Below are positions 2,886 through 59,077 of a stretch of 64,000 nucleotides of DNA, one piece after another (the stretch's first letter is position 1; each line of letters starts with the position of its first letter). This DNA is from an uncultured Candidatus Saccharibacteria bacterium. GTDB taxonomy: Bacteria; Patescibacteriota; Minisyncoccia; Phycocordibacterales; UBA1006. Location: NCBI GenBank assembly GCA_964350165.1, contig CAYGJA010000001.1, positions 4,947-68,946 on the forward strand, written 5' to 3'. The translations under genes and the position numbers were made by a program. The notes below the pieces were generated by a model that had not been told where the DNA came from, made no database searches, and saw nothing but the letters and a program-made list of their open reading frames with translations.

Positions 2886-3722
2886 ATGAAGAAAAAACGT
2901 CGACCAACCCAACGACGAAATTTTCCGCTGAAGCTCGTTGTTTTGGGTCTCTTGCTGTTAGTTGGTTTGGGGTCTTGGCTCTATTGGCTCGCCCAAGACA
3001 GTCAATACGTAACAGAATTCAAAATCATAACCCCGGAACCAGAAAATACTGATCTAGTAGAACGCTATGTCGAACAATACCTGGACACTCCACTATGGTT
3101 TGGATTAACCAAGCGAAGACATCGGTCGTTGATTCGCATCGAAAAACTTGAGAAGGAGTTATTGAATCTTTTTCCGCTTTTTTATCAAGCAGACCTCATT
3201 GTTTTTGACCAACAACTTGTTGTAGAACTCCAAACCCGCAAAGCGTACGCGCTCTGGTGCCAAACAATGCCCCAGAACGAAGAACAATGCTGGTTCATTG
3301 ACGAAAATCGCATCATGTACCGCAAGGCGCCACGTTTTTCGGATGGAGTATACGTAAAATACAGCAGTGCTATTCACCAGACTCCCTCTATCGGCGAACA
3401 AATTCTAGACGAAACAGCCAGAGCCTATAGTCGCGACGTGCTTGATGTTTTTGTTAACCAAAACCTCGAACCAACGAGAATTATCTACGAAAGCAAAGAC
3501 CGCGTAGCCATATCGATAGACAAACTTTATGGTTTCAAGGTCCCCGGAGATGCAAAGATTTATGTAAGTACCGAACAATCACTCCAGACCATCGACGAAC
3601 GATTGCAGATACTCATGGCCACCCCGGAATTCAAGGCAGAGGTTACTGCTTCGCCTGGGTTATTTGAATATGCGGACTTGCGCTTCCGGGGGCGTCTGGT
3701 ATACAAACTAAATGATGCTTAA
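2886..3722 (+). CDS. Hypothetical membrane-anchored protein (N-terminal TM, extracytoplasmic domain)
   Basis: 278 aa with a basic N-terminus followed by one hydrophobic helix (LKLVVLGLLLLVGLGSWLYWL). No family recognised. Its 3' end overlaps the dus start by 11 nt. Confidence 0.5.
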   Translation: MKKKRRPTQRRNFPLKLVVLGLLLLVGLGSWLYWLAQDSQYVTEFKIITPEPENTDLVERYVEQYLDTPLWFGLTKRRHRSLIRIEKLEKELLNLFPLFYQADLIVFDQQLVVELQTRKAYALWCQTMPQNEEQCWFIDENRIMYRKAPRFSDGVYVKYSSAIHQTPSIGEQILDETARAYSRDVLDVFVNQNLEPTRIIYESKDRVAISIDKLYGFKVPGDAKIYVSTEQSLQTIDERLQILMATPEFKAEVTASPGLFEYADLRFRGRLVYKLNDA

Positions 3723-6816: not shown

Positions 6817-6887
6817 TGCCGGATCGTCTAATGGTAGGACGCCTGGTTTTGGTCCAGGTAATCTAGGTTCGAGCCCTAGTCCGGCAA
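6817..6887 (+). tRNA. tRNA-Gln (anticodon UUG)
   Basis: Hand-folded cloverleaf with acceptor UGCCGGA/UCCGGCA, including the U1-A72 pair typical of tRNA-Gln. Anticodon stem CCUGG/CCAGG with loop UUUUGGU. T-arm CUAGG-UUCGAGC-CCUAG. No encoded CCA. Confidence 0.85.
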
Positions 6888-6890
6888 CAA

Positions 6891-7385
6891 ATGAAATGGA
6901 TTGTAGTTATCTTTCTTATCATAATAATTCTCTTCTTTTTATATACCCAGAAAAAGAAAACTCTAATAGAACCTGAAGAAAAATTTCCCTACAAACTTCA
7001 TCTCAGATTTTTCACCAAAAGTGAGTACGCTTTCTACAAAGAGTTACAAAAACAGGTGGGTGATAAGTACGCTATTTTTTCAAAGGTTCGTCTAGCTGAC
7101 TTCATCGACGTAGATATTGATAAATATAAAAACAGGAGCGAATGGCAAATCTACTGGAACAAGATAAAGTCGAAGCATGTTGATTTTTTGCTTTGTGATC
7201 CGGAGACACTAAAGCCGATGGTTGCTGTTGAATTGAATGGGAAGAGTCATCAGACTGAGAAAGTGAAGGAGCGTGATGAGTTTGTTTCAAGAATGTACGA
7301 GAGCGTCAATCTAAGGTTCGTTACGAATCACGTGGGGGAAGATTTTACAACTACTATTGAGAAAATAATACCGCCTATATCATAG
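6891..7385 (+). CDS. DUF2726-family protein (restriction-endonuclease-like fold) with an N-terminal TM anchor
   Basis: 164 aa with a hydrophobic N-terminus. The core FSKVRLADFIDVD...HVDFLLCDPETLKPMVAVELNGKSH is paralogous to 55711..56217. It starts 4 nt after tRNA-Gln in a very AT-rich segment. Confidence 0.6.
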   Translation: MKWIVVIFLIIIILFFLYTQKKKTLIEPEEKFPYKLHLRFFTKSEYAFYKELQKQVGDKYAIFSKVRLADFIDVDIDKYKNRSEWQIYWNKIKSKHVDFLLCDPETLKPMVAVELNGKSHQTEKVKERDEFVSRMYESVNLRFVTNHVGEDFTTTIEKIIPPIS

Positions 7386-7404
7386 ATATCTAAAAATAAA
7401 ACAA

Positions 7405-7818
7405 GTGCTTGTGGATAAGTTTACAAGTATTTTTGCTAGAATTGTAGGCATGGGTAATATTAAAATTAAATTCTTAACCTTCAAAGATCTAAAAAAACTC
7501 ACTCGATATTTTATCAAATCAACAGAAGCAATAGTGCTCGTATCTGCTTTTCGAGTGATTAACATTTTTATTAAAAGAGGAAATTATGCCAACACAATAG
7601 AAACAGTTAGATTTGATGCGATCTTTTTAAATGTCTTTGTAGACATGGCACTATTAGTGGCCCTTATCTACATCTCTCTCGAGGGATACGAATTTGCCAC
7701 GACATTTACAAGTAAAAAATGGGCAGTACTCTTATTTTGTTTGCTGAGTTTACTATTTTTTGTAGCACTCTATATGTCTCTGACATATCTTGGCTTTATT
7801 GCCGAAATTTTTAAATGA
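7405..7818 (+). CDS. Hypothetical membrane protein
   Basis: 137 aa with two C-terminal hydrophobic helices. AT-rich island gene with no recognisable family. Confidence 0.35.
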   Translation: MLVDKFTSIFARIVGMGNIKIKFLTFKDLKKLTRYFIKSTEAIVLVSAFRVINIFIKRGNYANTIETVRFDAIFLNVFVDMALLVALIYISLEGYEFATTFTSKKWAVLLFCLLSLLFFVALYMSLTYLGFIAEIFK

Positions 7819-8665
7819 AAAATCACAACTTCACCCCAGAGAGCAAGGGCAAAATTTTATAGAAATGGAAGAAGATAAAATAAAAATTAAAGAGGAGAAA
7901 TTTTTAAGAGAGTTAAACTTTTTTAGAAATGAGACGGAAAGCCTGATTAGATATGTTTACAGTAGTGGTGCATTGAATGATGTGATTATAAATAATAAAT
8001 CAGTAAAAAAAGCTGTAAATAAGAATCCTGCATTTTGGAATTCTGTTTTATTTTCATTTACTGATTCAATGTTTATTGTTTTGGGAAGAATATTCGATAT
8101 AGATAATTCTAAGGGAGTAAAAAATACAATACATACACTTTTTAGACAAATAGATGAAAGTAAAGAAATTTTTTCCAAAGTATCATTTTCTAATAGATGG
8201 GCAGCCTCTCATACTCAGATGCTTGATTATAAGGATAAATACATGGAAGGTTTTTATGAAATGAGTAAGGAAGATTGGAAAAAATTTAAAAAAATAAAGT
8301 CTTCCTTAGCTAGGCAATATCAAGAATTTTACAGGCCAATAAGAGATCTTATAGCCCACAGGGTTTTAACTGATAATGGGCAAATTAAAATTGTCATGAA
8401 CAAGGTTCCCGTTAGAGACATGGAGAAATTTTGTACCAAATTAAGAAATCTACATGAAGGACTGTGGCAACTTTATCACAACGGGAGAGGTCCCATTGCT
8501 CCATTAGAAACAGGCAAATATTCAAGTAAAAGCTTCGTAAATACAAAGTACAAACCATATCATCCAGGATCAATTGCATATCAGTATTCACAAGACGCAA
8601 AGAATGCTTTGATTTTATTAGCCAAAGGAAATATGTCTGAAATTCAAAAACATTCAAAATATTAA
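7790..8665 (+). CDS. Hypothetical island protein with a possible HEPN-like Rx4H motif (RDLIAHR); alternative start at 7866
   Basis: 291 aa, low complexity and AT-rich. The only recognisable element is the RDLIAH motif in a predicted helical region. Overlaps the upstream ORF by 29 nt. Confidence 0.4.
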   Translation: MALLPKFLNEKSQLHPREQGQNFIEMEEDKIKIKEEKFLRELNFFRNETESLIRYVYSSGALNDVIINNKSVKKAVNKNPAFWNSVLFSFTDSMFIVLGRIFDIDNSKGVKNTIHTLFRQIDESKEIFSKVSFSNRWAASHTQMLDYKDKYMEGFYEMSKEDWKKFKKIKSSLARQYQEFYRPIRDLIAHRVLTDNGQIKIVMNKVPVRDMEKFCTKLRNLHEGLWQLYHNGRGPIAPLETGKYSSKSFVNTKYKPYHPGSIAYQYSQDAKNALILLAKGNMSEIQKHSKY

Positions 8666-8740
8666 GATGCAAGTATTGAGAATAACCTTGCTGAGTTTGA
8701 TAAAACACGACAATGACGCAAGTTTACCAACTTCACATCC

Positions 8741-8786
8741 TCAAAAAAGTTCCAACTTCGCCCCAGACGGCCAACAAATGCTTTTT
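8741..8786 (+). repeat. Cassette-boundary repeat copy 1 (34-bp core AAAAAGTTCCAACTTCGCCCCAGACGGCCAACAA plus ATGCTTTTT)
   Basis: Core identical to the copies at 9258 and 10241. The 3' extension CAACAAATGCTTTTT is shared with the degenerate copy at 11411 and resembles the tRNA-Gln 3' end and flank (GGCAACAAATG). Confidence 0.8.
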
Positions 8787-8816
8787 CTATTATGAAAAAT
8801 AAAAAAGTCTGTTTTT

Positions 8817-8825
8817 TGCTACAAT
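8817..8825 (+). promoter_or_regulatory. Extended -10 (TGcTACAAT) 7 nt upstream of the NUDIX ATG; leaderless start
   Basis: TGCTACAAT-agccctc-ATG(8833). Confidence 0.45.
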
Positions 8826-8832
8826 AGCCCTC

Positions 8833-9261
8833 ATGAACAAATCAGAACATTTCCCAGAAGCTTTTTATAGAGTAAGTGTGCGTGGCATCATGCGTGACGG
8901 TGACAAATTCCTACTCGGACGCCACGGCAACACCTGGGAGACTTTCGGGGGAGGGTTAGATTTTGGAGAAAATTTACATGAAGCCTTGCGAAGAGAAATT
9001 CTAGAAGAAACAGGCTGTCACCTGACATACATATCAGAACAACCGATACTTGCCCTACCACATATTGTTCATGGAAAAAGAGAAATGGACTGGTTTTATA
9101 ACTTCCCAATCTATTACGAAGTTAAATTTGATATTTCTGAATTTGACCTATCTTTACAATATTCAGAATATAGATGGTTCACGGTCAAAGAAATTCAAAA
9201 TCTAAACGTCTTCGAGGGAGAGGAGGGAATAAAAGATGGTTTTGAGTCTCTTTTAAATTAA
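8833..9261 (+). CDS. NUDIX hydrolase
   Basis: 142 aa with the Nudix box GGGLDFGENLHEALRREILEETG. Cassette 1 of the tRNA-Gln island. Confidence 0.75.
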   Translation: MNKSEHFPEAFYRVSVRGIMRDGDKFLLGRHGNTWETFGGGLDFGENLHEALRREILEETGCHLTYISEQPILALPHIVHGKREMDWFYNFPIYYEVKFDISEFDLSLQYSEYRWFTVKEIQNLNVFEGEEGIKDGFESLLN

Positions 9262-9293
9262 AAAGTTCCAACTTCGCCCCAGACGGCCAACAA
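9258..9293 (+). repeat. Cassette-boundary repeat copy 2 (34-bp core)
   Basis: Perfect copy of the core. It overlaps the NUDIX stop codon. Confidence 0.8.
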
Positions 9294-9358
9294 CACAAAA
9301 ATAACCCCTCAAACAGGGTGTTTTTCAGCAAAATCACGTTGTAAACAAACAACTTTTT

Positions 9359-9378
9359 TAGGTTCGAACCCGAGTAGC
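9359..9378 (+). repeat. Remnant of the tRNA-Gln T-arm and acceptor
   Basis: TAGGTTCGAACCCGAGTAGC matches tRNA-Gln 6864..6880 (TAGGTTCGAGCCCTAGT) at 15 of 17 positions. It is not a foldable tRNA. Confidence 0.5.
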
Positions 9379-9585
9379 TTTTGAGGCTTAGGGTTTGTGG
9401 TTTTTTTAGTGTTAAAAGTAGAAATCAGGTTGAATAATATGGGTGCTTTTTAGTTTCGATCCTTCAGCCGGCCTAAAGCCTGGTCATGACCTAAAAACAA
9501 AATGTTTTAGTAGGATAAGCACAAGAAAAAAAAGAGACATCCCATACCCGCAAAATACTAGTAGAGAAGTTTTGAGAAAATTTTG

Positions 9586-9611
9586 CAAAAAAAGAACCCC
9601 TACTGAGGGGT
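9586..9611 (-). terminator. Intrinsic terminator for the macro-domain gene (minus strand)
   Basis: Minus-strand hairpin ACCCCT/AGGGGT followed by a U-run (an A7 tract on the plus strand), just downstream of the 9647 stop. Confidence 0.5.
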
Positions 9612-9646
9612 CCAACATAATTGGGGAGAAATAAAGAGTCCTAACC

Positions 9647-10156
9647 TTAAGCCAGCTGGGTGTTAAGCATTCGCTGAAACTCGGCCACCATCGATGGGTC
9701 ATTGTAGACCACAAAGGTGATACTCTCTAAGCTGCTATGTCGCGATAGATGATCCTTAACTCCTTGGACTATCTCACGGAGAGCCTCCTCTCTTGTTTCT
9801 TCAACTGCGCCCAGCATTACACCAGTGCGAATCATGGGAAGGGAAACTGTTCCGGCACCTGCGGTGTTTGCCTGATCGAGGCCAGCCCTTATGACTGTTC
9901 TCAGAGGAGCTTCGAGATCGTCTACCACAAAAATCACATCCTCAAATCCACCATTGTGTGGAGCCGTTTGAGGAGCATACACTGTGGTGCCTTGGGATAA
10001 AGACTTCCCTCTGGCTTGATCATGGAACATAGATCCTGCATTTTGCTGGATAACACGGTCGATGCCTCCAAACCACATACCACTAGAATTGATAGCTGTG
10101 ATCAAGGCGTCGGATTGAATGCGACTAATGTCGCCAGGAATAACGCGTACGTTCAT
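9647..10156 (-). CDS. Macro-domain protein (ADP-ribose / O-acetyl-ADP-ribose processing)
   Basis: 169 aa with the motifs GDISRIQSDALITAINSSG and GGIDRVI. Cassette 2. Confidence 0.75.
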   Translation of the reverse strand: MNVRVIPGDISRIQSDALITAINSSGMWFGGIDRVIQQNAGSMFHDQARGKSLSQGTTVYAPQTAPHNGGFEDVIFVVDDLEAPLRTVIRAGLDQANTAGAGTVSLPMIRTGVMLGAVEETREEALREIVQGVKDHLSRHSSLESITFVVYNDPSMVAEFQRMLNTQLA

Positions 10157-10189
10157 TTGATTGTGGGATTAAAAAGTTCATATTAATTT

Positions 10190-10220
10190 TATTATACCAC
10201 TTCAAGGAACCTCTTGTCAA
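10190..10220 (-). promoter_or_regulatory. Sigma70-like promoter for the macro gene (TTGACA-N18-TATAAT on the minus strand)
   Basis: The reverse complement reads cattgacaagaggttccttgaagtggtataat, about 35 nt upstream of the 10156 start. Confidence 0.5.
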
Positions 10221-10240
10221 TGCTTTGCCCACTTAATTTA

Positions 10241-10279
10241 TCTCAAAAAAGTTCCAACTTCGCCCCAGACGGCCAACAA
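10241..10279 (+). repeat. Cassette-boundary repeat copy 3 (34-bp core)
   Basis: Perfect copy of the core. Confidence 0.8.
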
Positions 10280-10319
10280 GTAAGAACCCCTGGTCCATTA
10301 CTTATGATATGCTCCAAGC

Positions 10320-11378
10320 ATGATTCAAATTAGCTTTAATAAGGTTACCTGGTATTCAAAACTGCTAGCTATCGTTTTATTTGTGGGAACTTTCTTGCTA
10401 GCCTTTTATCTTGGAAACGAAACCGGAAAACTTAGCAACACTACTAACGATCGCGCATCTGAAGGGGTCAACTCAACTAACCCAACGCAAGAAATTTCTG
10501 TCTCAAAATCCTTGGGCACTCAAACCCAACACGAGCCGATTCCTGGCACAGATAAAAAGATTGCCACAGACATACTCACCAGGGAGGTGTACAATTATCT
10601 TTTTTCTCAGAAATGCTATCTCGAAGATTGTAGTCTGTTTTATTCCGCCATGAGTGATATCACAGAGACAGCAGTTAGCACTATAGACAAAGCACATCTT
10701 GTTGTGGGTGGTAAAAACTATGGATTACTTGTAGCTCCTCCGAATAAAAATGAGTACGAAGAGGACTCCACCAGCCCGGGTCCAGTCGGGCCAGTCAGAT
10801 TAACCTTCGTTGATTACACCAACTCGTCAGAACCTTTTGTGGCTCAAACTTTATACCTTGAAGGGCTTATGGCTTGGGCTAGAAATGATTATGAATATTA
10901 TGCGAGTATTTCTATAGACGGAAAATATCCAAACAACGGATTTCTTTCGGGAGATGCATTTTATTTTGGCAACGCTCCATATAATTGCGTCACGCTTTGT
11001 GGCAACAGAATGGATATCTGGTATAGAGTTCTTTTTGACAAGGGCCTACAAAAGTTTATTGCCCAAAAACCGAATTACACACAGCTTGAGTCTATTTTGA
11101 ATAAAAAAAACATCACCATTGATTGGAAAAAAGAACATGGTATATATCTGGGTGGTTTTGAAATCTTTACAACCACAGACCCTCTCACTTTTCTTGCCAT
11201 AAAATATGACGAAGAGACTTTAACCCCAGAATACATTGTTTCTTTCGAAATACTTGAGAAGAATGAATCAGATTATCGATATGAGTGGAACGGTTTAGAT
11301 TCTGATTTCATCCAAAATATCAAATTAATCTACAACATAGATTCAAGCTTAACGCTAGAGGATGTTGTCGGAAACTAA
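10320..11378 (+). CDS. Hypothetical secreted or membrane-anchored protein
   Basis: 352 aa with an N-terminal signal anchor (LLAIVLFVGTFLLAFYLG), an S/T-rich linker, and an aromatic-rich domain. Cassette 3. Confidence 0.5.
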   Translation: MIQISFNKVTWYSKLLAIVLFVGTFLLAFYLGNETGKLSNTTNDRASEGVNSTNPTQEISVSKSLGTQTQHEPIPGTDKKIATDILTREVYNYLFSQKCYLEDCSLFYSAMSDITETAVSTIDKAHLVVGGKNYGLLVAPPNKNEYEEDSTSPGPVGPVRLTFVDYTNSSEPFVAQTLYLEGLMAWARNDYEYYASISIDGKYPNNGFLSGDAFYFGNAPYNCVTLCGNRMDIWYRVLFDKGLQKFIAQKPNYTQLESILNKKNITIDWKKEHGIYLGGFEIFTTTDPLTFLAIKYDEETLTPEYIVSFEILEKNESDYRYEWNGLDSDFIQNIKLIYNIDSSLTLEDVVGN

Positions 11379-11410
11379 GCTAGAAATTTGATACATCCAA
11401 ATGCATCGAG

Positions 11411-11450
11411 AAAGTCCCAACATCGTCATGGGCGGCCAACAAATGCTTTT
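11411..11450 (+). repeat. Degenerate fourth copy of the cassette-boundary repeat
   Basis: GAAAGTCCCAACATCGTCATGGGCGGCCAACAAATGCTTTTT shares AAAGT.CCAAC and GGCCAACAAATGCTTTTT with copy 1. Confidence 0.6.
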
Positions 11451-11478
11451 TTGGTAGGTGTTTTTTGTAAAAGAAAAG

Positions 11479-11673
11479 CCCTCCACTAAAAAGAGAGGGC
11501 TTAAAAAAATGGGGCCCCATAGCAAGGCGTAACCCCATAAAACGTATAATTCTGCTTCCCATATCTAGCAGAATTTATTTTATGGGGGAGGGTGCGACCT
11601 AAAGTCGCACCACAGGCCTTTTCTGCGATCGCTGGCGATCGCAGAAGCTTTCGGCGCGTTACGTGCCGAAAGG
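11479..11673. other. Cluster of five consecutive stem-loops between convergent genes; structured RNA or stacked terminators
   Basis: Hairpins at 11479-11503 (GCCCTC/GAGGGC), 11534-11588 (a bipartite stem of about 19 bp, CCCCATAAAA...TTTTATGGGG), 11592-11612 (GGTGCGAC/GTCGCACC), 11623-11646 (TCTGCGATCGC/GCGATCGCAGA, holding two GCGATCGC octamers), and 11649-11673 (CTTTCGGC/GCCGAAAG). Confidence 0.4.
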
Positions 11674-11805
11674 CCACGGGGGGGCAGAAGCGAAAAAGAT
11701 ACTTCTTATGTTAAGTATAGCATATTTAGCATATTTGTCAAGTACTTCCATCAAAAAAGCGAAAGATTTCAAGGGTCTGAAATTTGCCAGAAAGGACAAG
11801 GCGTA

Positions 11806-12423: not shown

Positions 12424-13353
12424 GTGAATACAACAAAATCTTCTCTTGTCTTTTTTTTCTCTATCACTATCGTCCTGTCGCTTGGAACCTATTTTGTTTA
12501 TACAAAAAACAACACTGACCCGCTAATCAATAATTCAGCACCTCTCGAAGAAACTGTGGTTGAATACAAAAATACTGATTATGGTTTTACTTTTTCTTTG
12601 CCTGACAATTGGCTGGGATACTCTGTGGAGACCGATACCTGGACAGGGAATCCTCTGGGAAGTAGCGCCACATCAGAAATGGGACCGAAATTTTTAATAC
12701 GTAACCCAAAGTGGACCCACGACACTCCCTACCAAGACATACCAATTCTTGTTTTTACTTTGACCCAATGGGGCGCCTATCAGAATGAAAATTTTGCTGT
12801 GTCTGCAGCCCCTATCCCTGCCACCGAACTAGCTCGGAACAATGTGTACGTTTTTGCTTTGCCACCAAGATGGGATTTTGATTACAAACAGGATTACAAA
12901 GAAGCTCAGGATATTGTTCGAAGCAACCCACTACAAGCATTCGAAATCTCGAGCGCAATGATCCTAGAAGAAGGGCAGTATTGCTATGTTTATCATCACG
13001 AAGGAACCAAAGAAGAACCCTACACCGTAGACGAGCTGGTTGGTATTTATGTGCAAGGAGGAATCGTCGACGGAATGAAAACAGGAACCCAAAGTGGTCC
13101 AGACATGACGAACGGCTACTCGGGAACACTGGCGGGAACTATCCAAAAAAACATGATTGATGTTGTCTTTGCATACACCATCGAAGGTTCTAGCAGTAAA
13201 GAAAAAGAGATATATCGAGTAAAGGACGATCTCAGTGGAATTGAAAAATTACGTTACCCACTAGAAGAAAAAAACGGAGTGCTCGTGCCCGACAGAACCA
13301 AAGAATTTGAAGCTCTTTTTTATGCTCAAATTAGTTGCGAAACTTCAGACTAA
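12424..13353 (+). CDS. Hypothetical secreted protein (probable GTG start)
   Basis: The track ORF 12217..13353 has no ATG before its hydrophobic segment. The in-frame GTG at 12424 gives a signal anchor (SLVFFFSITIVLSLGTYFVY). No recognisable family. Confidence 0.45.
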   Translation: MNTTKSSLVFFFSITIVLSLGTYFVYTKNNTDPLINNSAPLEETVVEYKNTDYGFTFSLPDNWLGYSVETDTWTGNPLGSSATSEMGPKFLIRNPKWTHDTPYQDIPILVFTLTQWGAYQNENFAVSAAPIPATELARNNVYVFALPPRWDFDYKQDYKEAQDIVRSNPLQAFEISSAMILEEGQYCYVYHHEGTKEEPYTVDELVGIYVQGGIVDGMKTGTQSGPDMTNGYSGTLAGTIQKNMIDVVFAYTIEGSSSKEKEIYRVKDDLSGIEKLRYPLEEKNGVLVPDRTKEFEALFYAQISCETSD

Positions 13354-13429: not shown

Positions 13430-14113
13430 ATGACTTTCATGAATACCGTATTAACACCCAAACAAAAAGAAGTTCTCGACCTGATTGTTAATTTTTCTAG
13501 AAAAAATAATGCGACTACGCCTACTTTGGATTGGTTACGTCAAGAAATTGGTTGCAAATCAATCAACAGCGTTGTTAAACATCTAAAAGCCCTGGAAACA
13601 AAAGGCGTCATTGCTCGTCGCAAACACGCCAAAGAAAACAACATTGTCATCTTGGAACAAAAAAGCATAAGGGGCCCTCAGATGATATCGGTGCCAGTTA
13701 TTGCTTCGGTTGGTTGTGATAATATGAGCGTCTTTGCCCAAGAAAACACTGACGAATATCTAACAGTAGACGCTAGCCTGATCGGCAAAAAACGCCTCGT
13801 GGCCATTCGAGCCGAGGGCGACAGCATGAATGATGCTGGCGTAGAAAACGGAGATTATGCCCTGGTAGAGATTCTCGAGAATGGCGAACCAATCAAAAAT
13901 GGCGAAATCGTAACGGCCATCATTGACGGTATGGCAGTACTCAAAAGATACGAAAAAAAAGACGGTGTAGTTATCTTGTACCCACAATCCCGAAACCCTC
14001 AACACAAACCTATCGTTGTTAATCAATCCTTCCGAATTATAGGTCGACTATGGCAAATGATCCCAGGGTTTGCCGAGGATGATTTTACCTTTGTCCCCGA
14101 GCCTAGTTTTTAA
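13430..14113 (+). CDS. lexA: LexA repressor (wHTH + S24 peptidase)
   Basis: 227 aa. The N-terminal wHTH is TPKQKEVLDLI...LKALETKGVIAR. The C-terminus has a Ser-Lys dyad (AEGDSMNDAG; MAVLKRYEKKDG). Confidence 0.85.
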   Translation: MTFMNTVLTPKQKEVLDLIVNFSRKNNATTPTLDWLRQEIGCKSINSVVKHLKALETKGVIARRKHAKENNIVILEQKSIRGPQMISVPVIASVGCDNMSVFAQENTDEYLTVDASLIGKKRLVAIRAEGDSMNDAGVENGDYALVEILENGEPIKNGEIVTAIIDGMAVLKRYEKKDGVVILYPQSRNPQHKPIVVNQSFRIIGRLWQMIPGFAEDDFTFVPEPSF

Positions 14114-22192: not shown

Positions 22193-23467
22193 ATGAGACT
22201 ACATCGAGCTTTTATATTTTTTATGGCTGGTTTTTTGGGAGGGATTATTGTTCTGGCTGGTTTTTTGCTTGCCATCCAAATGCAGAAAAAATACTCGGCC
22301 ATTGACGCCATCCAGGAACTGGCTTCTTCGGTTACTCAAGATTTTGTAATTAATCCTTATTCTGGATTGTTTAGTCAAAATTTCGAAACCATGACCTACG
22401 AAGACACTCCTTTTGCCGGCGGGTATCTGTCACTGTCACCAAGTGGTCGCTTTATTATTTTCAACACCAGTAATCTATCTGAACCGGGAACGTTCCTGGA
22501 GCGTTTCTACTTGGCTGATCTCATGACCGGAGAGCGTAAAGAAATATCAGGCACACCATTGCGTGACTGGGATGACGACAATGTCATTCTAACGACACTG
22601 GGTAACGAATTGCAGTTATTCGACACTATAAGCCCCGACAGCCCCCTCGAAAGCTGGCAATTCAGTAGCCCTATTTATTCTGCCAAACCTTCTCCCAAAG
22701 GCGATACACTGATAGTAAATACCCAGGACGGTGTCTATACCGCTGACCGTGCCAGTGGCACCAAAAGAAAAATAATAGACGGCGGACAACATGGTGCTTA
22801 CGCTTGGCTCCAAGACAACACTCGCCTGGTTGGCTTCCGGCAAATCCCAAACACACCGGGGAACAACATTCCTATTCACGAGCCAGTTATCTGGAATAGC
22901 CAGAACGGGGAATATGATATCTTGGTTGAAAACTTTCCAACTACCACCATCAACTACGTCGAATGGATTGTGCCTGATCAAATTGCACGCATAAACACTG
23001 GTTGGGATGATGGTTCTCGTGACTATGTCGTCAACGTGCAGTCACAAAGCTATCGCTATCTCGGAGAAACATCTGGTGATGGCAGCCTTAATCATCAAAA
23101 AAATATCAAGCGACTTGGCCTTAATGTTATCGAGGGCAATTTTGGTGATTTTTCCCAGGTAATCAAAAACACAACCTATTGGGGTAATGTGGAAAAGAAA
23201 GTAGCTTTTAGTGATTCATACCGAAGGTATCAATCCCAATTGCTCGACATGGATACCGCCATCTATTTACGTCAACAGATGACAAGTAGCTATGCCGAAA
23301 CAGAAGTAGTCAAGTTAGACCTGAATACTGGCAAAGAAACCGTACTCTACAAAGTAGATGGCTGGGTGCAAAACCTAGCGGTCAGCACTGACGGCCAGGA
23401 TACTTATTGGATTATCCCTGCTGGTGACAAATTAATCATTCGCTCGATCGAATCGGTTGATTTGTAG
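22193..23467 (+). CDS. Hypothetical membrane-anchored protein, probably beta-propeller (TolB-like)
   Basis: The track start at 22163 is TTG. The ATG at 22193 gives MRLHRAFIFFMAGFLGGIIVLAGF. The rest is rich in D/G/T/Y beta-strand repeats. The last 27 nt form a direct repeat with 26688..26714. Confidence 0.45.
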   Translation: MRLHRAFIFFMAGFLGGIIVLAGFLLAIQMQKKYSAIDAIQELASSVTQDFVINPYSGLFSQNFETMTYEDTPFAGGYLSLSPSGRFIIFNTSNLSEPGTFLERFYLADLMTGERKEISGTPLRDWDDDNVILTTLGNELQLFDTISPDSPLESWQFSSPIYSAKPSPKGDTLIVNTQDGVYTADRASGTKRKIIDGGQHGAYAWLQDNTRLVGFRQIPNTPGNNIPIHEPVIWNSQNGEYDILVENFPTTTINYVEWIVPDQIARINTGWDDGSRDYVVNVQSQSYRYLGETSGDGSLNHQKNIKRLGLNVIEGNFGDFSQVIKNTTYWGNVEKKVAFSDSYRRYQSQLLDMDTAIYLRQQMTSSYAETEVVKLDLNTGKETVLYKVDGWVQNLAVSTDGQDTYWIIPAGDKLIIRSIESVDL

Positions 23468-23471
23468 AAAG
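23445..23471 (+). repeat. 27-bp direct repeat, left copy (CTCGATCGAATCGGTTGATTTGTAGAA)
   Basis: Identical to 26688..26714. It contains the palindrome TCGATCGA and forms the 3' end of the 22193..23467 gene. Confidence 0.8.
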
Positions 23472-26585: not shown

Positions 26586-26605
26586 CGGTTATCTTAGCCG
26601 CACAA

Positions 26606-26640
26606 GCCTCGCAATTAATTTTGCGAGGCTACTTTTTTTT
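26606..26640 (+). terminator. Intrinsic terminator after the 991-aa gene
   Basis: GCCTCGCAA-ttaatt-TTGCGAGGC followed by T8. The paralogous hairpin at 27838 differs by compensatory changes. Confidence 0.65.
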
Positions 26641-26657
26641 GGGATACAATTACCAGT

Positions 26658-26711
26658 ATGTTTTTCTGGAAACGAGCCAAGCATTTACTCGATCGAATCG
26701 GTTGATTTGTA
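26658..26711 (+). pseudogene. Duplicated 5' fragment of the DUF45 gene (MFFWKRAK...), fused to the 27-bp repeat
   Basis: 26596..26676 duplicates 27826..27907 (terminator plus the first 7 codons of the 27890 gene). The frame then runs into the 27-bp repeat and stops. Confidence 0.55.
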
Positions 26712-26714
26712 GAA
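26688..26714 (+). repeat. 27-bp direct repeat, right copy
   Basis: Identical to 23445..23471. Confidence 0.8.
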
Positions 26715-26718: not shown

Positions 26719-27279
26719 TTATTCAAAGATTGCAGACCAATAGTCAATCAATATTTGCCGTGCGCCTTGATTTTTTAATTCTGTTTTGCCAAGCCAGGCA
26801 ACACCTTTCTCGACATCGTATTCGTCTGGATCTAAATTGCGACTAATCAATTTTGCCTCTTCGGTAGAGGGTTCTACCACAAATACATAATGTAGATCAT
26901 GCCGACCATGATCATGTGGTGCCTCTGCGCGGTACGACCAGATAACCTCGCTGAGAGTCAGAAAAGCAAAGCGCTCTAGGGGAAACTCTAGGCTGGTTTC
27001 TCGATGAAAAGAGCGCTGAGCAGCCGTGACAGCTGGTTCTCCGGCTCGTCTTCGACCGCCAATCACCCACAAACCTTCGGCTGGTTTCCGTGTGCGCATA
27101 ACCAGGCCGATTTTCTTGCTCTCTCTATCAACCAGCACCACGTCGCTATTGACCACCACCAAAGCTGAAATAGCTGCCGCGTATTCTTCATCAGTAATAC
27201 GCACGGCAGGAATATGATGATTGTCTGGGTTGTAGAACGGTGGCAAGACTGGTTCATTCATGGCTACAAAATACCGCAA
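26719..27279 (-). CDS. NUDIX hydrolase
   Basis: 186 aa with the Nudix box GGRRRAGEPAVTAAQRSFHRETSLEF. Confidence 0.7.
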   Translation of the reverse strand: MRYFVAMNEPVLPPFYNPDNHHIPAVRITDEEYAAAISALVVVNSDVVLVDRESKKIGLVMRTRKPAEGLWVIGGRRRAGEPAVTAAQRSFHRETSLEFPLERFAFLTLSEVIWSYRAEAPHDHGRHDLHYVFVVEPSTEEAKLISRNLDPDEYDVEKGVAWLGKTELKNQGARQILIDYWSAIFE

Positions 27280-27816: not shown

Positions 27817-27837
27817 GCCGACCGGTCAGAGGGCCAA

Positions 27838-27872
27838 GCCTTGCAATTAATTTTGCAAGGCCTCTTTTTTTT
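27838..27872 (+). terminator. Intrinsic terminator (paralogue of 26606)
   Basis: GCCTTGCAA-ttaatt-TTGCAAGGC followed by T9. Confidence 0.65.
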
Positions 27873-27889
27873 ACTATACAATTACTCAT

Positions 27890-28288
27890 ATGTTTTTCTG
27901 GAAGCGAGCGAAACCAAAACCCAAAAGGAAACCACCACGGATGACAAAAGCGCGGCGGCACTATCTGGCACACCGGGAAACAGCCCGCACTCTGATCCAT
28001 TCCAAAGTAGAACATTGGAACCAGTTTTATCATTACCCAATCGGTCAAATCCGAACCAAAGACGTCAAAACCAGATGGGGGAGCTGTTCTTCGCTCGGGA
28101 ATCTGAACTTTAATTACAAAATCCTCTTTCTACCCGAACATTTGCAGGACTATATTGTGGTCCACGAATTATGCCATTTGCGTCAGATGAACCACGGACC
28201 CAATTTCTGGAACCTTGTAGCGGAAACAATTCCTGAATATAAAAAATGCATTGCCGAGCTTGGACGCATGCATATAAAAATCACGTAA
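27890..28288 (+). CDS. DUF45/YgjP-like zinc metallohydrolase (HExxH)
   Basis: 132 aa with TRWGSCSS...YIVVHELCHLRQMNHGPNFW. Confidence 0.65.
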   Translation: MFFWKRAKPKPKRKPPRMTKARRHYLAHRETARTLIHSKVEHWNQFYHYPIGQIRTKDVKTRWGSCSSLGNLNFNYKILFLPEHLQDYIVVHELCHLRQMNHGPNFWNLVAETIPEYKKCIAELGRMHIKIT

Positions 28289-54398: not shown

Positions 54399-54470
54399 GG
54401 CCCTATCGTCTAACGGTTAGGACGCCAGGTTCTCATCCTGGAAATCGGAGTTCGATTCTCCGTAGGGTCA
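54399..54470 (+). tRNA. tRNA-Glu (anticodon CUC)
   Basis: Acceptor GGCCCUA/UAGGGUC. Anticodon stem CCAGG/CCUGG with loop UUCUCAU. T-arm CGGAG-UUCGAUU-CUCCG. No encoded CCA. Confidence 0.85.
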
Positions 54471-54550
54471 CATCATCTAAAAGCCTTCTGCAACAACACT
54501 CTTTGAAGTGGGATTGTGGGGTATTCAGAACTGAATACTTGACATTTAAT
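54460..54550 (+). repeat. attB-like site: tRNA-Glu 3' end (CCGTAGGGTCAC) plus a downstream flank duplicated at 58314
   Basis: The 26 nt CCGTAGGGTCACATCATCTAAAAGCC are identical at 58314..58339. The next roughly 65 nt are about 75% identical. Confidence 0.75.
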
Positions 54551-54637
54551 CTAAAAAATGGTATTATACTTTTGATTAATTCTTTTTAAATTCACCCGTA
54601 CGAAAACGAAATCCCTGGTACGGGCAGGGTAAAAAAC

Positions 54638-55411
54638 ATGAAAATTACTAATCACAGCGGCGCATGGGCCGCAGAGATTGAGATTTTGGAAGGGCCCATG
54701 TCGGCCCTGTGTCTGGAGATTGGCATTTTTTGCCGCAACCGCCAGCGCGCACGTCGGACCTTCACCATCGGCCAAGCCTTGGCCTCTGGCAAGTACCCAG
54801 AAGGACTTGCCGAGGTTGAGACCTGGCTCGAGAAGACGGCCGGCTCAGCCGAGCTCAAGCACAAGGTGCTTGCAGCGGTCGCAGTGGCCATCTTGCGGAC
54901 GGAGGTATCCACCTATGACTGGTTCCTAATGGCAGAAATTGTTGGCCAAGAGAAACCTTTTGGAAAAGAGTTCGAGGAAGGATACCGAGTCGAGGTGCCA
55001 CAGCGTCTCCTCCCCTCAAGCTGGACTGGCGAAGCCAAGTTTGGCAATTTGGAGGCTGCCGTGGCCTACGCCAATGACCAGGCGGACAATTTGGAGGCCT
55101 TGGAAATTGTCCACGAGGACAAATGGGGGAACCGCACCCCGATCGCCCTTGTGAAGCCTGCAAGCATACTGTGCTTGCATGGCGAAGTTCACTACCTGGC
55201 CAAACGTCTGTCTTTCGATCTCGAAACGATCGAAAGGTGGGTGGTACGCCATTGGGGATTAAAAGAGGGGTTCGAAACCCACCTTGAGGACTTGGAAGAC
55301 CTAAAAGCTGAGATTTGGAGCTACTCCAGACTCACAGCCCATTGGGGCATGAGAGTGTGCCCAGCCCTAGGCTGGGATACAGACTGGCAACCGCAAGAAG
55401 AGGAGCTTTAG
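54638..55411 (+). CDS. Hypothetical protein encoded by a conspicuously GC-rich ORF
   Basis: 257 aa. Its codon usage is rich in GCC/CGC/GGC, unlike the neighbouring genes. No recognisable domain. It is the first cassette after tRNA-Glu. Confidence 0.5.
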   Translation: MKITNHSGAWAAEIEILEGPMSALCLEIGIFCRNRQRARRTFTIGQALASGKYPEGLAEVETWLEKTAGSAELKHKVLAAVAVAILRTEVSTYDWFLMAEIVGQEKPFGKEFEEGYRVEVPQRLLPSSWTGEAKFGNLEAAVAYANDQADNLEALEIVHEDKWGNRTPIALVKPASILCLHGEVHYLAKRLSFDLETIERWVVRHWGLKEGFETHLEDLEDLKAEIWSYSRLTAHWGMRVCPALGWDTDWQPQEEEL

Positions 55412-55528
55412 GCTCACTATCTAATAAGAAAAAGGGTCGGATGACATCAGTTGTCCGACCGCTTTTTATTTGGGGAATTTAGATGCTCGCCGCCAAATTT
55501 CTGGTGGCTTTTTTAATCTCACTCCGCA

Positions 55529-55690
55529 CCCCCAAAAGTTCTGAAAACCAAGCCGTAGGGTCACTAGAATTTAAAGTGTTGTAAATAAAGGGTTTTAGAG
55601 GGTGTCCTAGGGGGTGTTCCGAATTCTTGGTGAACATGTTTTCAAAAGATAGTTTTTGGTGGGTTATAATTGTTTTATACAAATTCACGT
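55529..55690 (+). repeat. Island repeat copy A (full): tRNA-like arm, core CCGTAGGGTCAC, and a roughly 130-bp conserved arm ending in TTATAATTGTTTTATACAAATTCACG
   Basis: About 95% identical to copy D (58908..59068). Core at 55553..55564. The arm ends about 20 nt before the DUF2726 ATG. Confidence 0.8.
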
Positions 55691-55710
55691 TATTTTTAAA
55701 GATTCTCTCA

Positions 55711-56217
55711 ATGACAAATCTCACCATTCTCATCATCGTCGGCGTTGGATTTGCCGCTATTGTTTACTTCTTTGGCAAGAAAGAACCCTCTGAGGGAAAA
55801 ACCAAGGAAGAATATCACTACCAACCAAAGAAGTTCTTTATGACGCGCGCCGAGCATGAATGCTTTGATGCTTTGGTCGAGGCAGTGGGGGATCAGTATC
55901 ATGTTCTAGCCCAAGTACATCTGAATTCAATTGTGGACCACAAAGTGACGGGTCAAAACTGGAAAGCAGCATTTCGGCACATCAGCCAAAAATCTGTCGA
56001 CTTTGTGCTCTGTGACAAGGATTACCTATCTCCAAAACTAGCGATAGAGCTTGATGACAAAACACACGAAAGACCTGATCGGATGTTGCGTGATGCTGAG
56101 GTGGAGAGAATCCTAAAAGATGCCAAGGTTCCTTTGCTCAGATTGGAAAACCATGGGAGCTTTGATGTGGGAGAGATAAAGGAAAAGATTCAAGGTTCTC
56201 TCGTAGTAATAGGGTAA
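55711..56217 (+). CDS. DUF2726-family protein with an N-terminal TM anchor (paralogue of 6891..7385)
   Basis: The ATG at 55711 gives MTNLTILIIVGVGFAAIVYFF. The core is SVDFVLCDKDYLSPKLAIELDDKTH. The track ORF 55627 starts inside the repeat. Confidence 0.6.
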   Translation: MTNLTILIIVGVGFAAIVYFFGKKEPSEGKTKEEYHYQPKKFFMTRAEHECFDALVEAVGDQYHVLAQVHLNSIVDHKVTGQNWKAAFRHISQKSVDFVLCDKDYLSPKLAIELDDKTHERPDRMLRDAEVERILKDAKVPLLRLENHGSFDVGEIKEKIQGSLVVIG

Positions 56218-56290
56218 TTATGGCTTTACTAAGCCCTTTTGGGGTGGTATTTTCTCAATGAGAAATAGAATACTTAACTTCTAATTACTA

Positions 56291-57190
56291 ATGAAACGTT
56301 GGAAAACAATTCCAAAAAATCGAAAGCTGGCTCTACTGGCTGTAGGGTTGCTTGTACTTGCCATGGTTGGTTGTGTTTCAAAGAGATCGATCAGCTCTAT
56401 TGCCACGAACAACACTGATGCGATGCCTGAAAACCCTCTTACCGGGTTGGATTATGTACCACCGTCTATTGATGGAGTTTCCTATGGCGACTATCTTGAT
56501 TCGATTCCTGATGGTTCCATGTATATTGGCTCAAGCCGGGGTCCGATTGGCATAGACGCTAGTTTTGTGGGTGGTGATACTGAAATTTTTCAACGAGATC
56601 GATTTTTGGCTCAAAACGAGACATATAATTATTATTCTCCTTATAATATTGGCACATCGTATCAAGGTGTGACTGGCCAGGGAGAATACACCGCCCATAC
56701 CGCTAAGATTAGATTGGAGTATAACGGAGTGGAGGTTTGGTCGGGAGAACGGTACAAGCTTTACGAATTATTCACAGATTCACCTAAAAAGGGGTTCTTG
56801 GTATCACTAGGATGGATATCTGAGTCCGAGATTCTCTTCAATGTAAAAAGTGATGGCTGGGGTCAGAGTTTAGAAATGTGGATACTTGATGTCTCTAACA
56901 TGGCTACTCGTAAGCTGAATTTGCCCGAAAACTATGTTTCGGTGCCATATTTGTCGCCTAATGGTAAATATGTAATGTTCGGCATCAAGACTTCACCTGA
57001 AGGTGATGCAGATTGGGTTGATGAATGGTTCTTGTATGAAATACAAACCAACAAGATTACTCCGTTACCACCAGGCTCATATGGGGCCTGGTATCTTCCT
57101 GTCGATACGTACAACAAAATCGAAGAAGCATTGCAAGCCTCGATGGGATCAGGGTTTTTACACCCAAAAGTTCGGAAAACCAAGCCGTAG
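56291..57190 (+). CDS. Hypothetical lipoprotein, beta-propeller-like
   Basis: 299 aa with a lipobox (LLVLAMVGC) and a Y/G/D-rich beta-rich domain. The last 9 codons and the stop are encoded by repeat copy B. Confidence 0.5.
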   Translation: MKRWKTIPKNRKLALLAVGLLVLAMVGCVSKRSISSIATNNTDAMPENPLTGLDYVPPSIDGVSYGDYLDSIPDGSMYIGSSRGPIGIDASFVGGDTEIFQRDRFLAQNETYNYYSPYNIGTSYQGVTGQGEYTAHTAKIRLEYNGVEVWSGERYKLYELFTDSPKKGFLVSLGWISESEILFNVKSDGWGQSLEMWILDVSNMATRKLNLPENYVSVPYLSPNGKYVMFGIKTSPEGDADWVDEWFLYEIQTNKITPLPPGSYGAWYLPVDTYNKIEEALQASMGSGFLHPKVRKTKP

Positions 57191-57270
57191 GGTCACTAGA
57201 ATTTAAAGTGTTGTAAATAAAGGGGTTTTTGGGGGTGTCCTAGGGGGTGTTCCGAATTATTTGTGAACGT
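57163..57270 (+). repeat. Island repeat copy B (arm truncated)
   Basis: Core at 57185..57196, followed by TAGAATTTAAAGTGTTGTAAATAAAGGGG...GTGTTCCGAATT, after which the similarity is lost. Confidence 0.75.
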
Positions 57271-57322
57271 GTGAAGATTGTGGAAGATATGTAAAACAGC
57301 CAGCAAACAAAGAGTCAGATTC

Positions 57323-58312
57323 TCAAATCTCTTTATTTCGCATTCTCACTAATTCAGTCTCTTGTATAGAATCGCCTTGGTCACCAAAAAATAAACTTTC
57401 AAGCACGGACCAGAGATAGAGCGAGGATGAGATAACAATTATCCAATGGGCTTGTAATATATAAGTTTCTACAGCAAAAACCCCAACTCCCACTAAGAGC
57501 GCAAGAAGAAGGTGAATAGTTTTTGCATCCTCTCTCACATACTCGATCCCTTTGCGTCCACGATTCTCGGTGTGAAGAAATGCCAAAGCCAAAATCTGCA
57601 AGGAAGATATGACAACGGGAACAATATAGGCACCCTCTCTTGTTTCATAAGCAATAACACCCGTACCAATAGCCGATGCGACGAGCGACAGATACACAAA
57701 CATTTTTATTGCGCTGAATTGGAAGGGGGTTGGTTTTTTTGAGGTAAAAGCAAAGAAAAGCCCGCACGCTAATCCAAAAAATACGAACGGGGGTAAGAGA
57801 TTAAAAAGTCCACCATCATTCCATATTTCTAAAATAAGACTCAAAACCTCTCCCCGTAAAGGTGTTAGCCCCAACAAGAGTATCCATATTAGTGAGAGTA
57901 AAAAAACGGTCGATTCAGTGATTTTGGGCAAAAATCCTAATTTCTTTGCAAGCCCTTGCATGTAAAAGTGACTGTTGTCCCCAATACGACGTGTTTTATT
58001 GGGATAGTAATGCATCCAAGGCGCAACGATTCCTAAAAGCAACCCACCAAAATAAACAGCAAAACGTACTCCAAGTCCAACCCCTAGCTCTTGCAATTGA
58101 GTTGCCATGTAATACATACCGAAACTCAAGGTAACCAAGATGGCCACACCAATACCGCGCTTAATACGCAACCCTTTCTGACGGTCTTTTCTCATGAATC
58201 TAGTATATCGCAACCAGTGAGACTCAAGAATACTTAAATGATGAACTCTTATTTTACCCAATTTTCTAACGTAACAATAAGGCTTTTGATACCCAAAAGT
58301 TCGGAAAACCAA
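57323..58312 (-). CDS. Hypothetical polytopic membrane protein (about 8 TM); true start probably internal
   Basis: 329 aa. The N-terminal 15 residues (MVFRTFG...) are just the reverse complement of repeat copy C with a TTG start. The likely real start is a downstream ATG. Confidence 0.45.
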   Translation of the reverse strand: MVFRTFGYQKPYCYVRKLGKIRVHHLSILESHWLRYTRFMRKDRQKGLRIKRGIGVAILVTLSFGMYYMATQLQELGVGLGVRFAVYFGGLLLGIVAPWMHYYPNKTRRIGDNSHFYMQGLAKKLGFLPKITESTVFLLSLIWILLLGLTPLRGEVLSLILEIWNDGGLFNLLPPFVFFGLACGLFFAFTSKKPTPFQFSAIKMFVYLSLVASAIGTGVIAYETREGAYIVPVVISSLQILALAFLHTENRGRKGIEYVREDAKTIHLLLALLVGVGVFAVETYILQAHWIIVISSSLYLWSVLESLFFGDQGDSIQETELVRMRNKEI

Positions 58313-58400
58313 GCCGTAGGGTCACATCATCTAAAAGCCCTGTATAGCAACACCTTGTGAAGTGGAGTTATGGGGTTTTCAGAACTACTTATATTGACTT
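58256..58400 (+). repeat. Island repeat copy C (hybrid): repeat-type left arm, core, then tRNA-Glu-type right flank
   Basis: ACCCAATTTTCTAACGTAACAATAAG...CCCAAAAGTTCGGAAAACCAAG + CCGTAGGGTCAC (58314..58325) + ATCATCTAAAAGCC... This is a P-O-B'-like junction. Confidence 0.75.
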
Positions 58401-58810: not shown

Positions 58811-58907
58811 ACTGACTGTCAAAGCCGCCCTTTAGGAAGGCGGCTTCTTTTTGCATACTTTCTCTAAAACACCAGATCGGATACTGCTTTTCTAATGTCA
58901 CCCCTCA

Positions 58908-59068: not shown

Positions 59069-59077
59069 TAAAATCTT

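Follow-up and report, generated by a model that had tools for sequence, protein, structure and literature searches.

The 64-kb stretch of DNA analyzed here, referred to as the window, comes from an uncultured Candidatus Saccharibacteria bacterium and carries a tRNA-Gln(TTG) gene that is followed, at 6889–11440, by a tandem row of five cassettes of 516–1163 bp, each containing one or two genes and each ending in a copy of one sequence motif. This row is probably an array of mobile cassettes that lack a recombinase of their own, carry sites mimicking the end of the tRNA, and are acted upon by an enzyme supplied in trans. Repeated integration at the 3′ end of tRNA-Gln had been proposed from an earlier sequence-only reading of the window, and that proposal is borne out by a cassette found in identical form on another contig, an empty-type flank in relatives, a conserved motif, covariation between motif and tRNA, and the specificity of each motif for its cognate tRNA. 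Genomes are very small in bacteria of the candidate phyla radiation (CPR), or Patescibacteria, and only a few of the mobile elements in them have been characterized. Coordinates refer to positions in the window, and the sequence data examined comprise the window and ~90 kb of related loci.

Motif Copies and Cassette Boundaries in the tRNA-Gln Array

The motif is represented by a 34-mer, AAAAAGTTCCAACTTCGCCCCAGACGGCCAACAA, that occurs without a mismatch at 8744–8777, 9260–9293, and 10246–10279 on the + strand, with none expected as gauged against 100 shuffles; three such copies between genes had been claimed from the sequence alone. Semi-global scanning of the entire window on both strands recovered the degenerate copy that had also been pointed out (boundary 11440, end of the 34-mer alignment 11442, edit distance 8) and a further one that had been missed (boundary 7844, alignment end 7846, edit distance 9). 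Shuffled windows gave 0.35 matches at an edit distance of ≤10 in the same scan, which found nothing motif-like on either strand of the 64-kb window outside 7.8–11.5 kb. All copies are intergenic, share one orientation, and lie exclusively downstream of tRNA-Gln. A half-copy scar of the motif is also present at 8720–8742, within cassette B.

The repeat proper is 32 nt long and ends in ...GGCCAAC. The AA that follows it is assigned to the junction because a second contig, L001, reads TT at that place. The resulting 32-nt site, AAAAAGTTCCAACTTCGCCCCAGACGGCCAAC, is located at the tRNA-distal end of each cassette, and the boundaries read ...GGCCAAC/AA, where the slash marks the point at which one cassette ends and the next begins. 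The last 27 nt of tRNA-Gln, TCTAGGTTCGAGCCCTAGTCCGGCAAC, occupy 6862–6888, and all cassettes lie 3′ of the terminal ...CAAC of this segment, which would serve as the chromosomal site, similar to an attB or an attI. A table of all junctions gives a common core of 15 nt (CAACAAATGCTTTTT) in four of them and of 6 nt (CAACAA) in the remaining ones. The 15-nt core is common to the tRNA flank and some of the cassettes.

Cassettes and Their Cargo

The cassettes are unrelated to one another in blastn and blastp comparisons. Cassette GC content spans 31–51%, compared with 43% overall, a spread that fits mixed origins. The AT-rich segment of 6.9–8.7 kb that the sequence-only reading placed behind the tRNA is apparent as a GC content of 31–36% at 7.0–8.5 kb, again compared with 43% overall. 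Pfam and gene coordinates likewise agree with the gene content read earlier, namely, a NUDIX gene, a macro-domain gene with its own promoter and terminator, and a gene for a 352-aa protein (Table 1). The promoter of the macro-domain gene is a perfect TTGACA-18-TATAAT. PADLOC, applied to ten cassette proteins, returned nothing beyond a weak match of the NUDIX protein to the candidate system PDC-S07, and comparisons of the cargo with viral contigs and of the array with phage genomes gave nothing other than one distant match to NUDIX and trivial matches to tRNA-Gln.

Table 1. Features of the tRNA-Gln array and of the tRNA-Glu array in the window
Feature	Coordinates	Strand	Remarks
tRNA-Gln(TTG)	6817-6887/8	+	ARAGORN, Rfam; intact, 61 bits
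Cassette A	6889-7844	+	956 bp, GC 34%; degenerate motif copy ~7813-7844
DUF2726 nuclease-like, membrane-anchored gene (cassette A)	6891-7385	+	Pfam E=3.8e-30; ATG 3 nt past tRNA
137-aa membrane protein gene (cassette A)	7405-7818	+	
Cassette B	7845-8775	+	931 bp, GC 31%; perfect motif copy 1 at 8744-8775 (34-mer to 8777)
HEPN_AbiU2 gene (cassette B)	7865-8665	+	Pfam E=8.9e-13
Cassette C	8776-9291	+	516 bp; leader with TGCTACAAT -10-like box; perfect motif copy 2 at 9260-9291
NUDIX gene (cassette C)	8833-9261	+	Pfam NUDIX
Cassette D	9292-10277		986 bp, GC 43%; perfect motif copy 3 at 10246-10277
Macro-domain gene (cassette D)	9647-10156	-	Own promoter 10220-10191, terminator 9613-9594
Cassette E	10278-11440	+	1163 bp; degenerate motif copy 4 at 11410-11440
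352-aa secreted or membrane-anchored protein gene (cassette E)	10320-11378	+	No family match
Ancestral right flank of tRNA (B′)	11441-11500	+	AAATGCTTTTTTGGTAGGTG... and terminator hairpin
tRNA-Glu(CTC) array	54399-59548	+	tRNA at 54399-54471; five cassettes of one or two genes

The DUF2726 gene of cassette A starts so close to the tRNA (3 nt past its end) that 3′ processing of the tRNA would yield a nearly leaderless mRNA. DUF2726 is PD-(D/E)xK-like, and membrane-anchored copies are encoded in both arrays, at 6891–7385 downstream of tRNA-Gln and at 55711–56217 downstream of tRNA-Glu, with 27% identity between them. From this sequence comparison, we read DUF2726 as probable recurrent cargo of the two arrays.

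An Identical NUDIX Cassette at a Second tRNA-Gln Position

An exact-protein look-up with the NUDIX product led to L001, a 3.9-kb NCBI contig (GCA_964352805.1), in which the order is tRNA-Gln(TTG), CAAC/AAATGCTTTTTC..., NUDIX, the 32-mer, and unrelated DNA. Positions 8776–9291 of the window and 1176–1691 of L001 are 100% identical over 516 bp, and the identity ends exactly at the CAAC boundary on both sides. The left junction in L001 reads ...TCCGGCAAC/AAATGCTTTTTCTATTATG..., such that the NUDIX cassette abuts tRNA-Gln directly, and the motif on L001 matches the 34-mer at 32 of 34 positions. The tRNA-Gln genes of the window and L001 are 92% identical, and the genes upstream of them differ (typA versus ytxH). 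Because different tRNA genes and flanks surround the same 516 bp, a one-gene unit occupies two distinct tRNA-Gln-anchored positions. Homologs of the NUDIX protein in distant genomes (73–80% identity) are encoded by ordinary operon genes with neither the motif nor a tRNA nearby, which fits a normal gene having been captured as a cassette.

The protein of the NUDIX cassette is recorded only from NCBI contigs, and the neighboring cassettes are 100% identical in Logan assemblies (ERR3534981, ERR3534985, and ERR3535002). This pattern hints weakly that some populations lack the NUDIX cassette, and short-contig indexing could explain it equally well. The Logan contigs that match the window end at each repeat because their k of 31 is smaller than 34, and they are therefore uninformative on cassette order. 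A separate observation in L001 is an identical 25-nt palindrome, AATAATGGGGTCAGGACCCATTATT, at 3278–3302 and 3629–3653, both intergenic and downstream of the NUDIX cassette, with an imperfect copy near 2040. This hairpin-type repeat is distinct from the motif and absent from the window.

The tRNA-Gln Locus in Relatives

The gene that precedes the tRNA has homologs through which syntenic loci were reached. Two of these, L007 and L008, share ~80% nucleotide identity with the window across topA-dprA-serS-dus-dnaX-ytxH and lexA-tfoX. In both, tRNA-Gln is followed at once by CAAC/AAATGCTTTTTTTGTAGGTG... and a terminator, and this flank matches window positions 11441–11485, located behind motif copy 4 (blastn, 82.6% over 46 nt). 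Since the sequence next to the tRNA in L007 is the sequence that follows the last copy in the window, 6889–11440 represents a block inserted between the tRNA and its ancestral flank. L007 has one near-perfect motif ~430 nt beyond this point, and AAATACTTTTTGGGG follows it here as well. The sequence-only reading had described ATGCTTTTT as resembling the flank of the tRNA. The flank of the tRNA in the window itself is AAATGAAATGG, and the description is correct for the native flank, which is confirmed through L007 only.

When the variable regions (the segments from tRNA-Gln to the conserved right flank) of the window, L007, L009, and L001 were compared all against all by blastn and blastp, the motif was the sole common element besides the NUDIX cassette of L001. 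The cargo consists of a FUR gene and a glucose/sorbosone-dehydrogenase-like (GSDH) gene in L007, and of two kinase-like genes and a peptidase gene in L009. A comparison of this locus across relatives, which had been suggested together with the integration proposal, thus finds an empty-type flank, unrelated cargo, and a shared motif. L020 and L013 have no tRNA-Gln(TTG) at this position, and the covariation analysis described below consequently stands on two motif types. In the more distant L020, a DEAD-box helicase gene follows ytxH in place of tRNA-Gln(TTG). L020 also has a tRNA-Gln(CTG) at 12489–12562 on the - strand, beside a GSDH-FUR pair; the same pair is held by the variable region at tRNA-Gln(TTG) of L007.

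A Sister Array at tRNA-Glu

The window contains a second array of five units, 605–1632 bp in size, downstream of tRNA-Glu(CTC). Its motif is 31 nt long (AAAAGTTCNGAAA...GGGTCAC), lies on the + strand, and ends at 55564, 57196, 58325, 58943, and 59548, with boundaries that read ...GGGTCAC/TA or ...GGGTCAC/AT. The sequence-only reading had recognized the same architecture at the two tRNAs, with a different repeat at each. The shared design is even more evident than this reading implied, and the repeats are not unrelated: both motifs open with AAAAGTTC, at an offset of exactly 23 nt from the boundary. The right flanks of the Glu cassettes are of two kinds, ATCATCTAAAAGCC... and TAGAATTTAAAGTGTTG..., the second of which has a leader of ~125 nt that is common to several cassettes. 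The first Glu cassette, 54472–55564, is GC-rich (51% versus 43% overall). In relatives, the tRNA-Glu locus was not reached, the gene upstream of it being an orphan, and exact look-ups of two Glu cassettes returned one repeat-broken contig or nothing. The Glu-type motif has 0 matches in IMG/VR.

The Motif as a Cognate Mimic of the tRNA End

The motif corresponds to the 3′ 27 nt of tRNA-Gln, comprising the GTTC box of the T-loop and the 3′ strand of the acceptor, with an insertion of 5 nt between these two boxes. GTTC is separated from the boundary by 18 nt in each of the two tRNAs, whereas the spacing is 23 nt in the Gln and Glu motif families alike and also in the motif variant found in L009. 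In all three pairs of motif and tRNA, the best end-anchored alignment has exactly one 5-nt gap and 18 identities over 27 positions. The similarity of the window motif to tRNA-Gln is modest when taken alone, with a z-score of 2.6 and 43 of 2000 shuffles scoring as well. Higher z-scores are obtained for the L009 motif with L009 tRNA-Gln (3.5) and for the motif of the Glu array with tRNA-Glu (5.1). Pairs of a motif and a noncognate tRNA reach z ≤1.1, and each motif is significant with its own tRNA only; a resemblance to tRNA-Gln no better than that to other tRNAs, which the sequence-only reading had named as the outcome that would speak against its proposal, is thus not what is seen. The 17 identities over 21 positions of its motif-tRNA alignment were reproduced, with no need for the indel that it had introduced. 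The exact core that the repeat and the end of tRNA-Gln have in common is CAAC(AA), extending up to CAACAAATGCTTTTT; the repeat is a cognate mimic of the tRNA end and no copy of it.

In L009 and L010, ...GTCCCTGTCCGGCAGC forms the end of the tRNA, with AAAAAGTTCTAACGTCGTCCCAGACGGGCAGC as the motif. Of the three changes that fall within the last 16 nt of the L009 motif, two (GCCC to GTCC and CAAC to CAGC) match changes of the tRNA at the same positions, for which a hypergeometric calculation, a rough estimate, gives a probability of coincidence of ~0.02–0.03. These changes support a motif that varies in step with the tRNA in the most distant of the three lineages.

The mimicry and the covariation bear on whether a dedicated recombinase is needed at all. 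The arrangements of the window, L001, and L007 might instead have arisen from duplicated intergenic repeats, through homologous or microhomology recombination between repeats of 32–34 bp. Identical 34-bp repeats could indeed allow rare RecA-dependent exchange, and the 15-nt core is present in the tRNA flank and in some cassettes. The end of the tRNA and the motif, however, share just 4–9 contiguous nucleotides at the junction, yet the junction in L001 is precise; the cassettes are unrelated to one another; and duplication predicts neither cognate mimicry with a 5-nt offset in two families nor the covariation in L009. Recombination between repeats with no dedicated enzyme is accordingly a highly improbable origin of the array.

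Fragments of tRNA 3′ ends that retain the normal spacing are also found in the variable regions: in the window, the T-arm remnant TAGGTTCGAACCCGAGT at 9359–9375 in cassette D, which the sequence-only reading had placed at 9359; in L001, at ~1751–1775; and in L009, at ~13866–13880 and 13933–13960. At least one of these fragments derives from a tRNA other than tRNA-Gln. The fragments resemble old attachment (att) scars, as if conventional tRNA-targeting elements had used the same spot as well.

Such fragments would also suit a different history of the whole array, in which successive phage-like elements or integrative and conjugative elements (ICEs) integrated at tRNA-Gln with integrases of their own and decayed to one or two genes each, becoming cis-mobilizable elements (CIMEs), such that single cassettes are now immobile. 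The two degenerate motif copies and the half-copy scar at 8720–8742 are consistent with this history, and tandem decayed elements are common at tRNA genes (PMC5704250; bioRxiv 10.1101/2020.12.28.424599). A row of decayed elements is nevertheless unlikely, because three sites are identical over 34 nt despite unrelated cassettes of differing GC content, two loci carry the same one-gene unit of 516 bp at 100% identity, with the identity ending exactly where the sites do, and Pfam detected no integrase fragments in the window or in the cargo of relatives. It is also unlikely that large elements decaying independently would have left units of such uniform, gene-like size at two tRNAs while keeping their sites intact.

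Folding and Distribution of the Motif

Neither an inverted repeat nor a palindrome is found at the motif. Eight contexts of 71 nt (three Gln copies and one Glu-type copy, each on both strands) give folding z-scores of +0.2 to -1.6 relative to shuffles, and a hairpin site of the integron attC type or of the HUH type was rejected because the motif contexts fold no better than shuffles. The GTTRRRY core is not present at cassette boundaries. In the junction table, the right flanks have no inverted GAAC/T-run at the expected distance and are unrelated beyond 2–11 nt. Rfam gave no credible match for the motif, the noncoding parts of the cassettes, or the structured regions.

In the window and the related loci, the motif is confined to a single locus downstream of tRNA-Gln and to a single orientation. 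It has 0 matches in GTDB representative genomes and in JGI metagenomes, each searched with two degenerate patterns, and 0 matches in IMG/VR, searched with the first pattern and the consensus pattern. Dispersal of the 34-mer as a repetitive extragenic palindromic (REP) or miniature inverted-repeat transposable element (MITE), which the sequence-only reading had considered damaging to its proposal, thus has left no sign in the window, the related loci, or these three collections. A dispersed repeat of this kind, or a cis-regulatory element such as a terminator, an operator, or an RNA-processing signal, would fit the intergenic placement of the motif and its position 40–55 nt ahead of the NUDIX and 352-aa genes. 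It would not fit the restriction to one orientation and to the region downstream of tRNA-Gln, the lack of a hairpin, of an Rfam match, and of occurrences in three large collections, or the exact coincidence of the motif with the ends of a transferred segment; moreover, copy 2 follows one gene and faces a convergent one, which is no promoter position. Of the alternatives to a cassette array, this is the least plausible and hardly merits belief.

Proposed Mechanism

We infer a circular intermediate, a direction of insertion, an enzyme class, current activity, and one general capture mechanism, the last of which had been suggested by the sequence-only reading. In the proposed mechanism, strand exchange would take place in or beside the CAAC(AA) shared by the ends of both sites. 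Exchange at this position would leave the tRNA intact and turn each junction into the site of cassette i, CAAC, and the start of cassette i+1. The entry point of a circular cassette would be either the tRNA end or an internal site, and its exit would occur by recombination between two flanking sites. For the NUDIX cassette, the predicted circle junction comprises the NUDIX 3′ end, the 32-mer, and AAATGCTTTTTCTATTATG, and the predicted deletion junction comprises the AbiU2 3′ end, the 32-mer, and AACACAAAAATAACCCC. The logic would be similar to that of an integron, with the tRNA end as attI and the 32-mer as attC, except that the sites would be duplexes and not hairpins. The recombinase would be encoded elsewhere and act in trans, and the same or a related enzyme would serve the tRNA-Glu array.

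The most likely enzyme, although it can be named only tentatively, would belong to those tyrosine integrases that recombine at the asymmetric 3′ end of tRNA genes. The junction cores CAACAA and CAACAAATGCTTTTT fit the overlap region of 6–8 bp of a tyrosine recombinase acting at such an end. A large serine recombinase is the weaker candidate and a rather doubtful one, being ranked below because dyad symmetry is missing despite the 5-bp offset. It is conceivable, if speculative, that the arrays represent a cassette system of Patescibacteria that is integron-like yet unrelated to integrons, in which a family of trans-acting recombinases would serve several tRNAs through duplex mimic sites with a half-turn offset of +5 bp. 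The +5 geometry is known so far only from large serine integrases, and the site here would be one-sided.

Several observations weigh against an array of mobile cassettes. Pfam detected no recombinase domain in essentially all sizeable open reading frames (ORFs) of the window, nor a recombinase in the cargo or variable regions of L001, L007, L009, and L013. The right side of the junctions is kept for 2–11 nt only and lacks dyad symmetry, which is unusual for tyrosine and serine recombinases alike, and the right junction in L001 is CAAC/TT instead of CAAC/AA. Two contexts are documented for the NUDIX cassette only; L001 may come from a different genome or from the same metagenome-assembled genome and is a distinct locus in either case. 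Finally, two of the five sites have decayed, and part of the array may hence be fixed; together with the half-copy scar, the decayed sites indicate that part of the array is aging.

Comparison with Known Systems

In architecture, the arrays appear closest to the tandem accretion seen with CIMEs and in tycheposon islands, and in their working they would resemble integrons. CIMEs are integrase-less segments that keep their att sites, become stacked through site-specific recombination at the 3′ end of a target gene, and are mobilized by a recombinase from elsewhere (PMC5704250). Similar to the arrays described here, CIMEs such as those of the ICESt1/ICESt3-related islands of Streptococcus are tandem integrase-less units at the 3′ end of a target gene. 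They differ in being decayed ICEs or integrative and mobilizable elements of several kilobases, usually one or two per site, that carry an exact att copy of the target end, whereas the Gln and Glu arrays have units of 0.5–1.6 kb, five per tRNA, and a diverged mimic with an exact core of 4–15 nt. The tycheposons of Prochlorococcus, which has a streamlined genome, form islands by tRNA genes in which successive integrations push older elements inward, and the elements, separated by partial tRNA copies and accompanied by scattered remnants, carry accessory or defense cargo (bioRxiv 10.1101/2020.12.28.424599). Tycheposons, however, encode their own tyrosine or large serine recombinase along with replication modules and are several kilobases or longer. 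No mobility gene is found in any of the Gln or Glu cassettes, and the repeat differs from a plain partial tRNA.

Integrons, and the integrase-less attC clusters termed CALINs, share with the arrays cassettes that mostly hold a single gene and are mostly co-oriented, each with its site at the end that faces away from a fixed chromosomal site. In integrons too, the crossover is located at the far edge of the site, which leaves the conserved sequence almost entirely on one side, and the sites of sedentary chromosomal integrons are near-identical within one host. In contrast to integrons, the Gln array has no attC hairpin, no GTTRRRY/RYYYAAC core, and no adjacent intI in the window; its fixed site is the end of a tRNA gene, and several cassettes have promoters of their own. 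A CALIN is a cluster of attC sites that lacks an integrase, and an adjacent intI is thus not required.

P4-type tyrosine integrases are said, in a statement attributed to Williams 2002, to use the asymmetric 3′ end of a tRNA. Like the sites described here, theirs have a crossover at the extreme 3′ end of the tRNA and no flanking symmetry, and the tRNA is preserved. Their attP sites are ~200–400 bp long, contain arm-type sites, and lie beside int. The NUDIX cassette, by comparison, has at most ~90 bp of noncoding DNA in total. With large serine integrases, the arrays share short sites and an outer motif that is 5 bp farther from the crossover in the site of the mobile element: for the LI/A118 integrase, the ZD motif is shifted by 5 bp toward the center in attB (PMC3783163). 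The attP and attB sites of these enzymes differ in being imperfect dyads around a central dinucleotide; here, the left half alone is conserved, and it would span ~31 bp versus ~25 bp. Furthermore, recombination of attP with attP or attL by a serine integrase needs a directionality factor, and no gene for such a factor was found here.

A full-text literature search found no paper describing integron-like arrays in CPR bacteria. If the arrays work as proposed, the shuttling of single accessory genes (nuclease-like, Abi-like, NUDIX, macro-domain, and secreted) at tRNA slots would explain strain-level gene turnover, and the sites would constitute a natural recombination site pair of ~32 bp that follows a simple rule, namely, the same boxes with 5 bp of added spacing. 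Genome engineering could also gain a compact new recombinase from them. With the sites, a donor cassette, an empty-type site, and the nucleotide at the boundary now defined, the proposal can be tested directly.

Other Features of the Window

A likely unclassified small RNA gene is located at 11505–11706 on the - strand. It has a strong sigma-70-type promoter at 11741–11714 (TTGACA-16-TATACT) and terminators at 11528–11514 and 11497–11479, folds very stably (-93.7 kcal/mol, z=-7.1), and has no Rfam match. L007 and L009 also contain a structured noncoding stretch with a perfect TTGACA-16-TATAAT promoter (at 11279–11252 and 11407–11380, respectively) at the same position and convergent with tRNA-Gln. 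The structured stretches of the window, L007, and L009 have no detectable sequence similarity to one another.

Elsewhere in the window, a segment comprising a terminator, a promoter, and a gene start is duplicated at 23421–23469, 26603–26714, and 27835–27912 (78 nt at 85% and 49 nt at 82% identity). The duplicated segments surround a 991-aa ORF and a second NUDIX gene (26719–27279, - strand), and the arrangement may mark another small hotspot of rearrangement or insertion, one that is not anchored at a tRNA.

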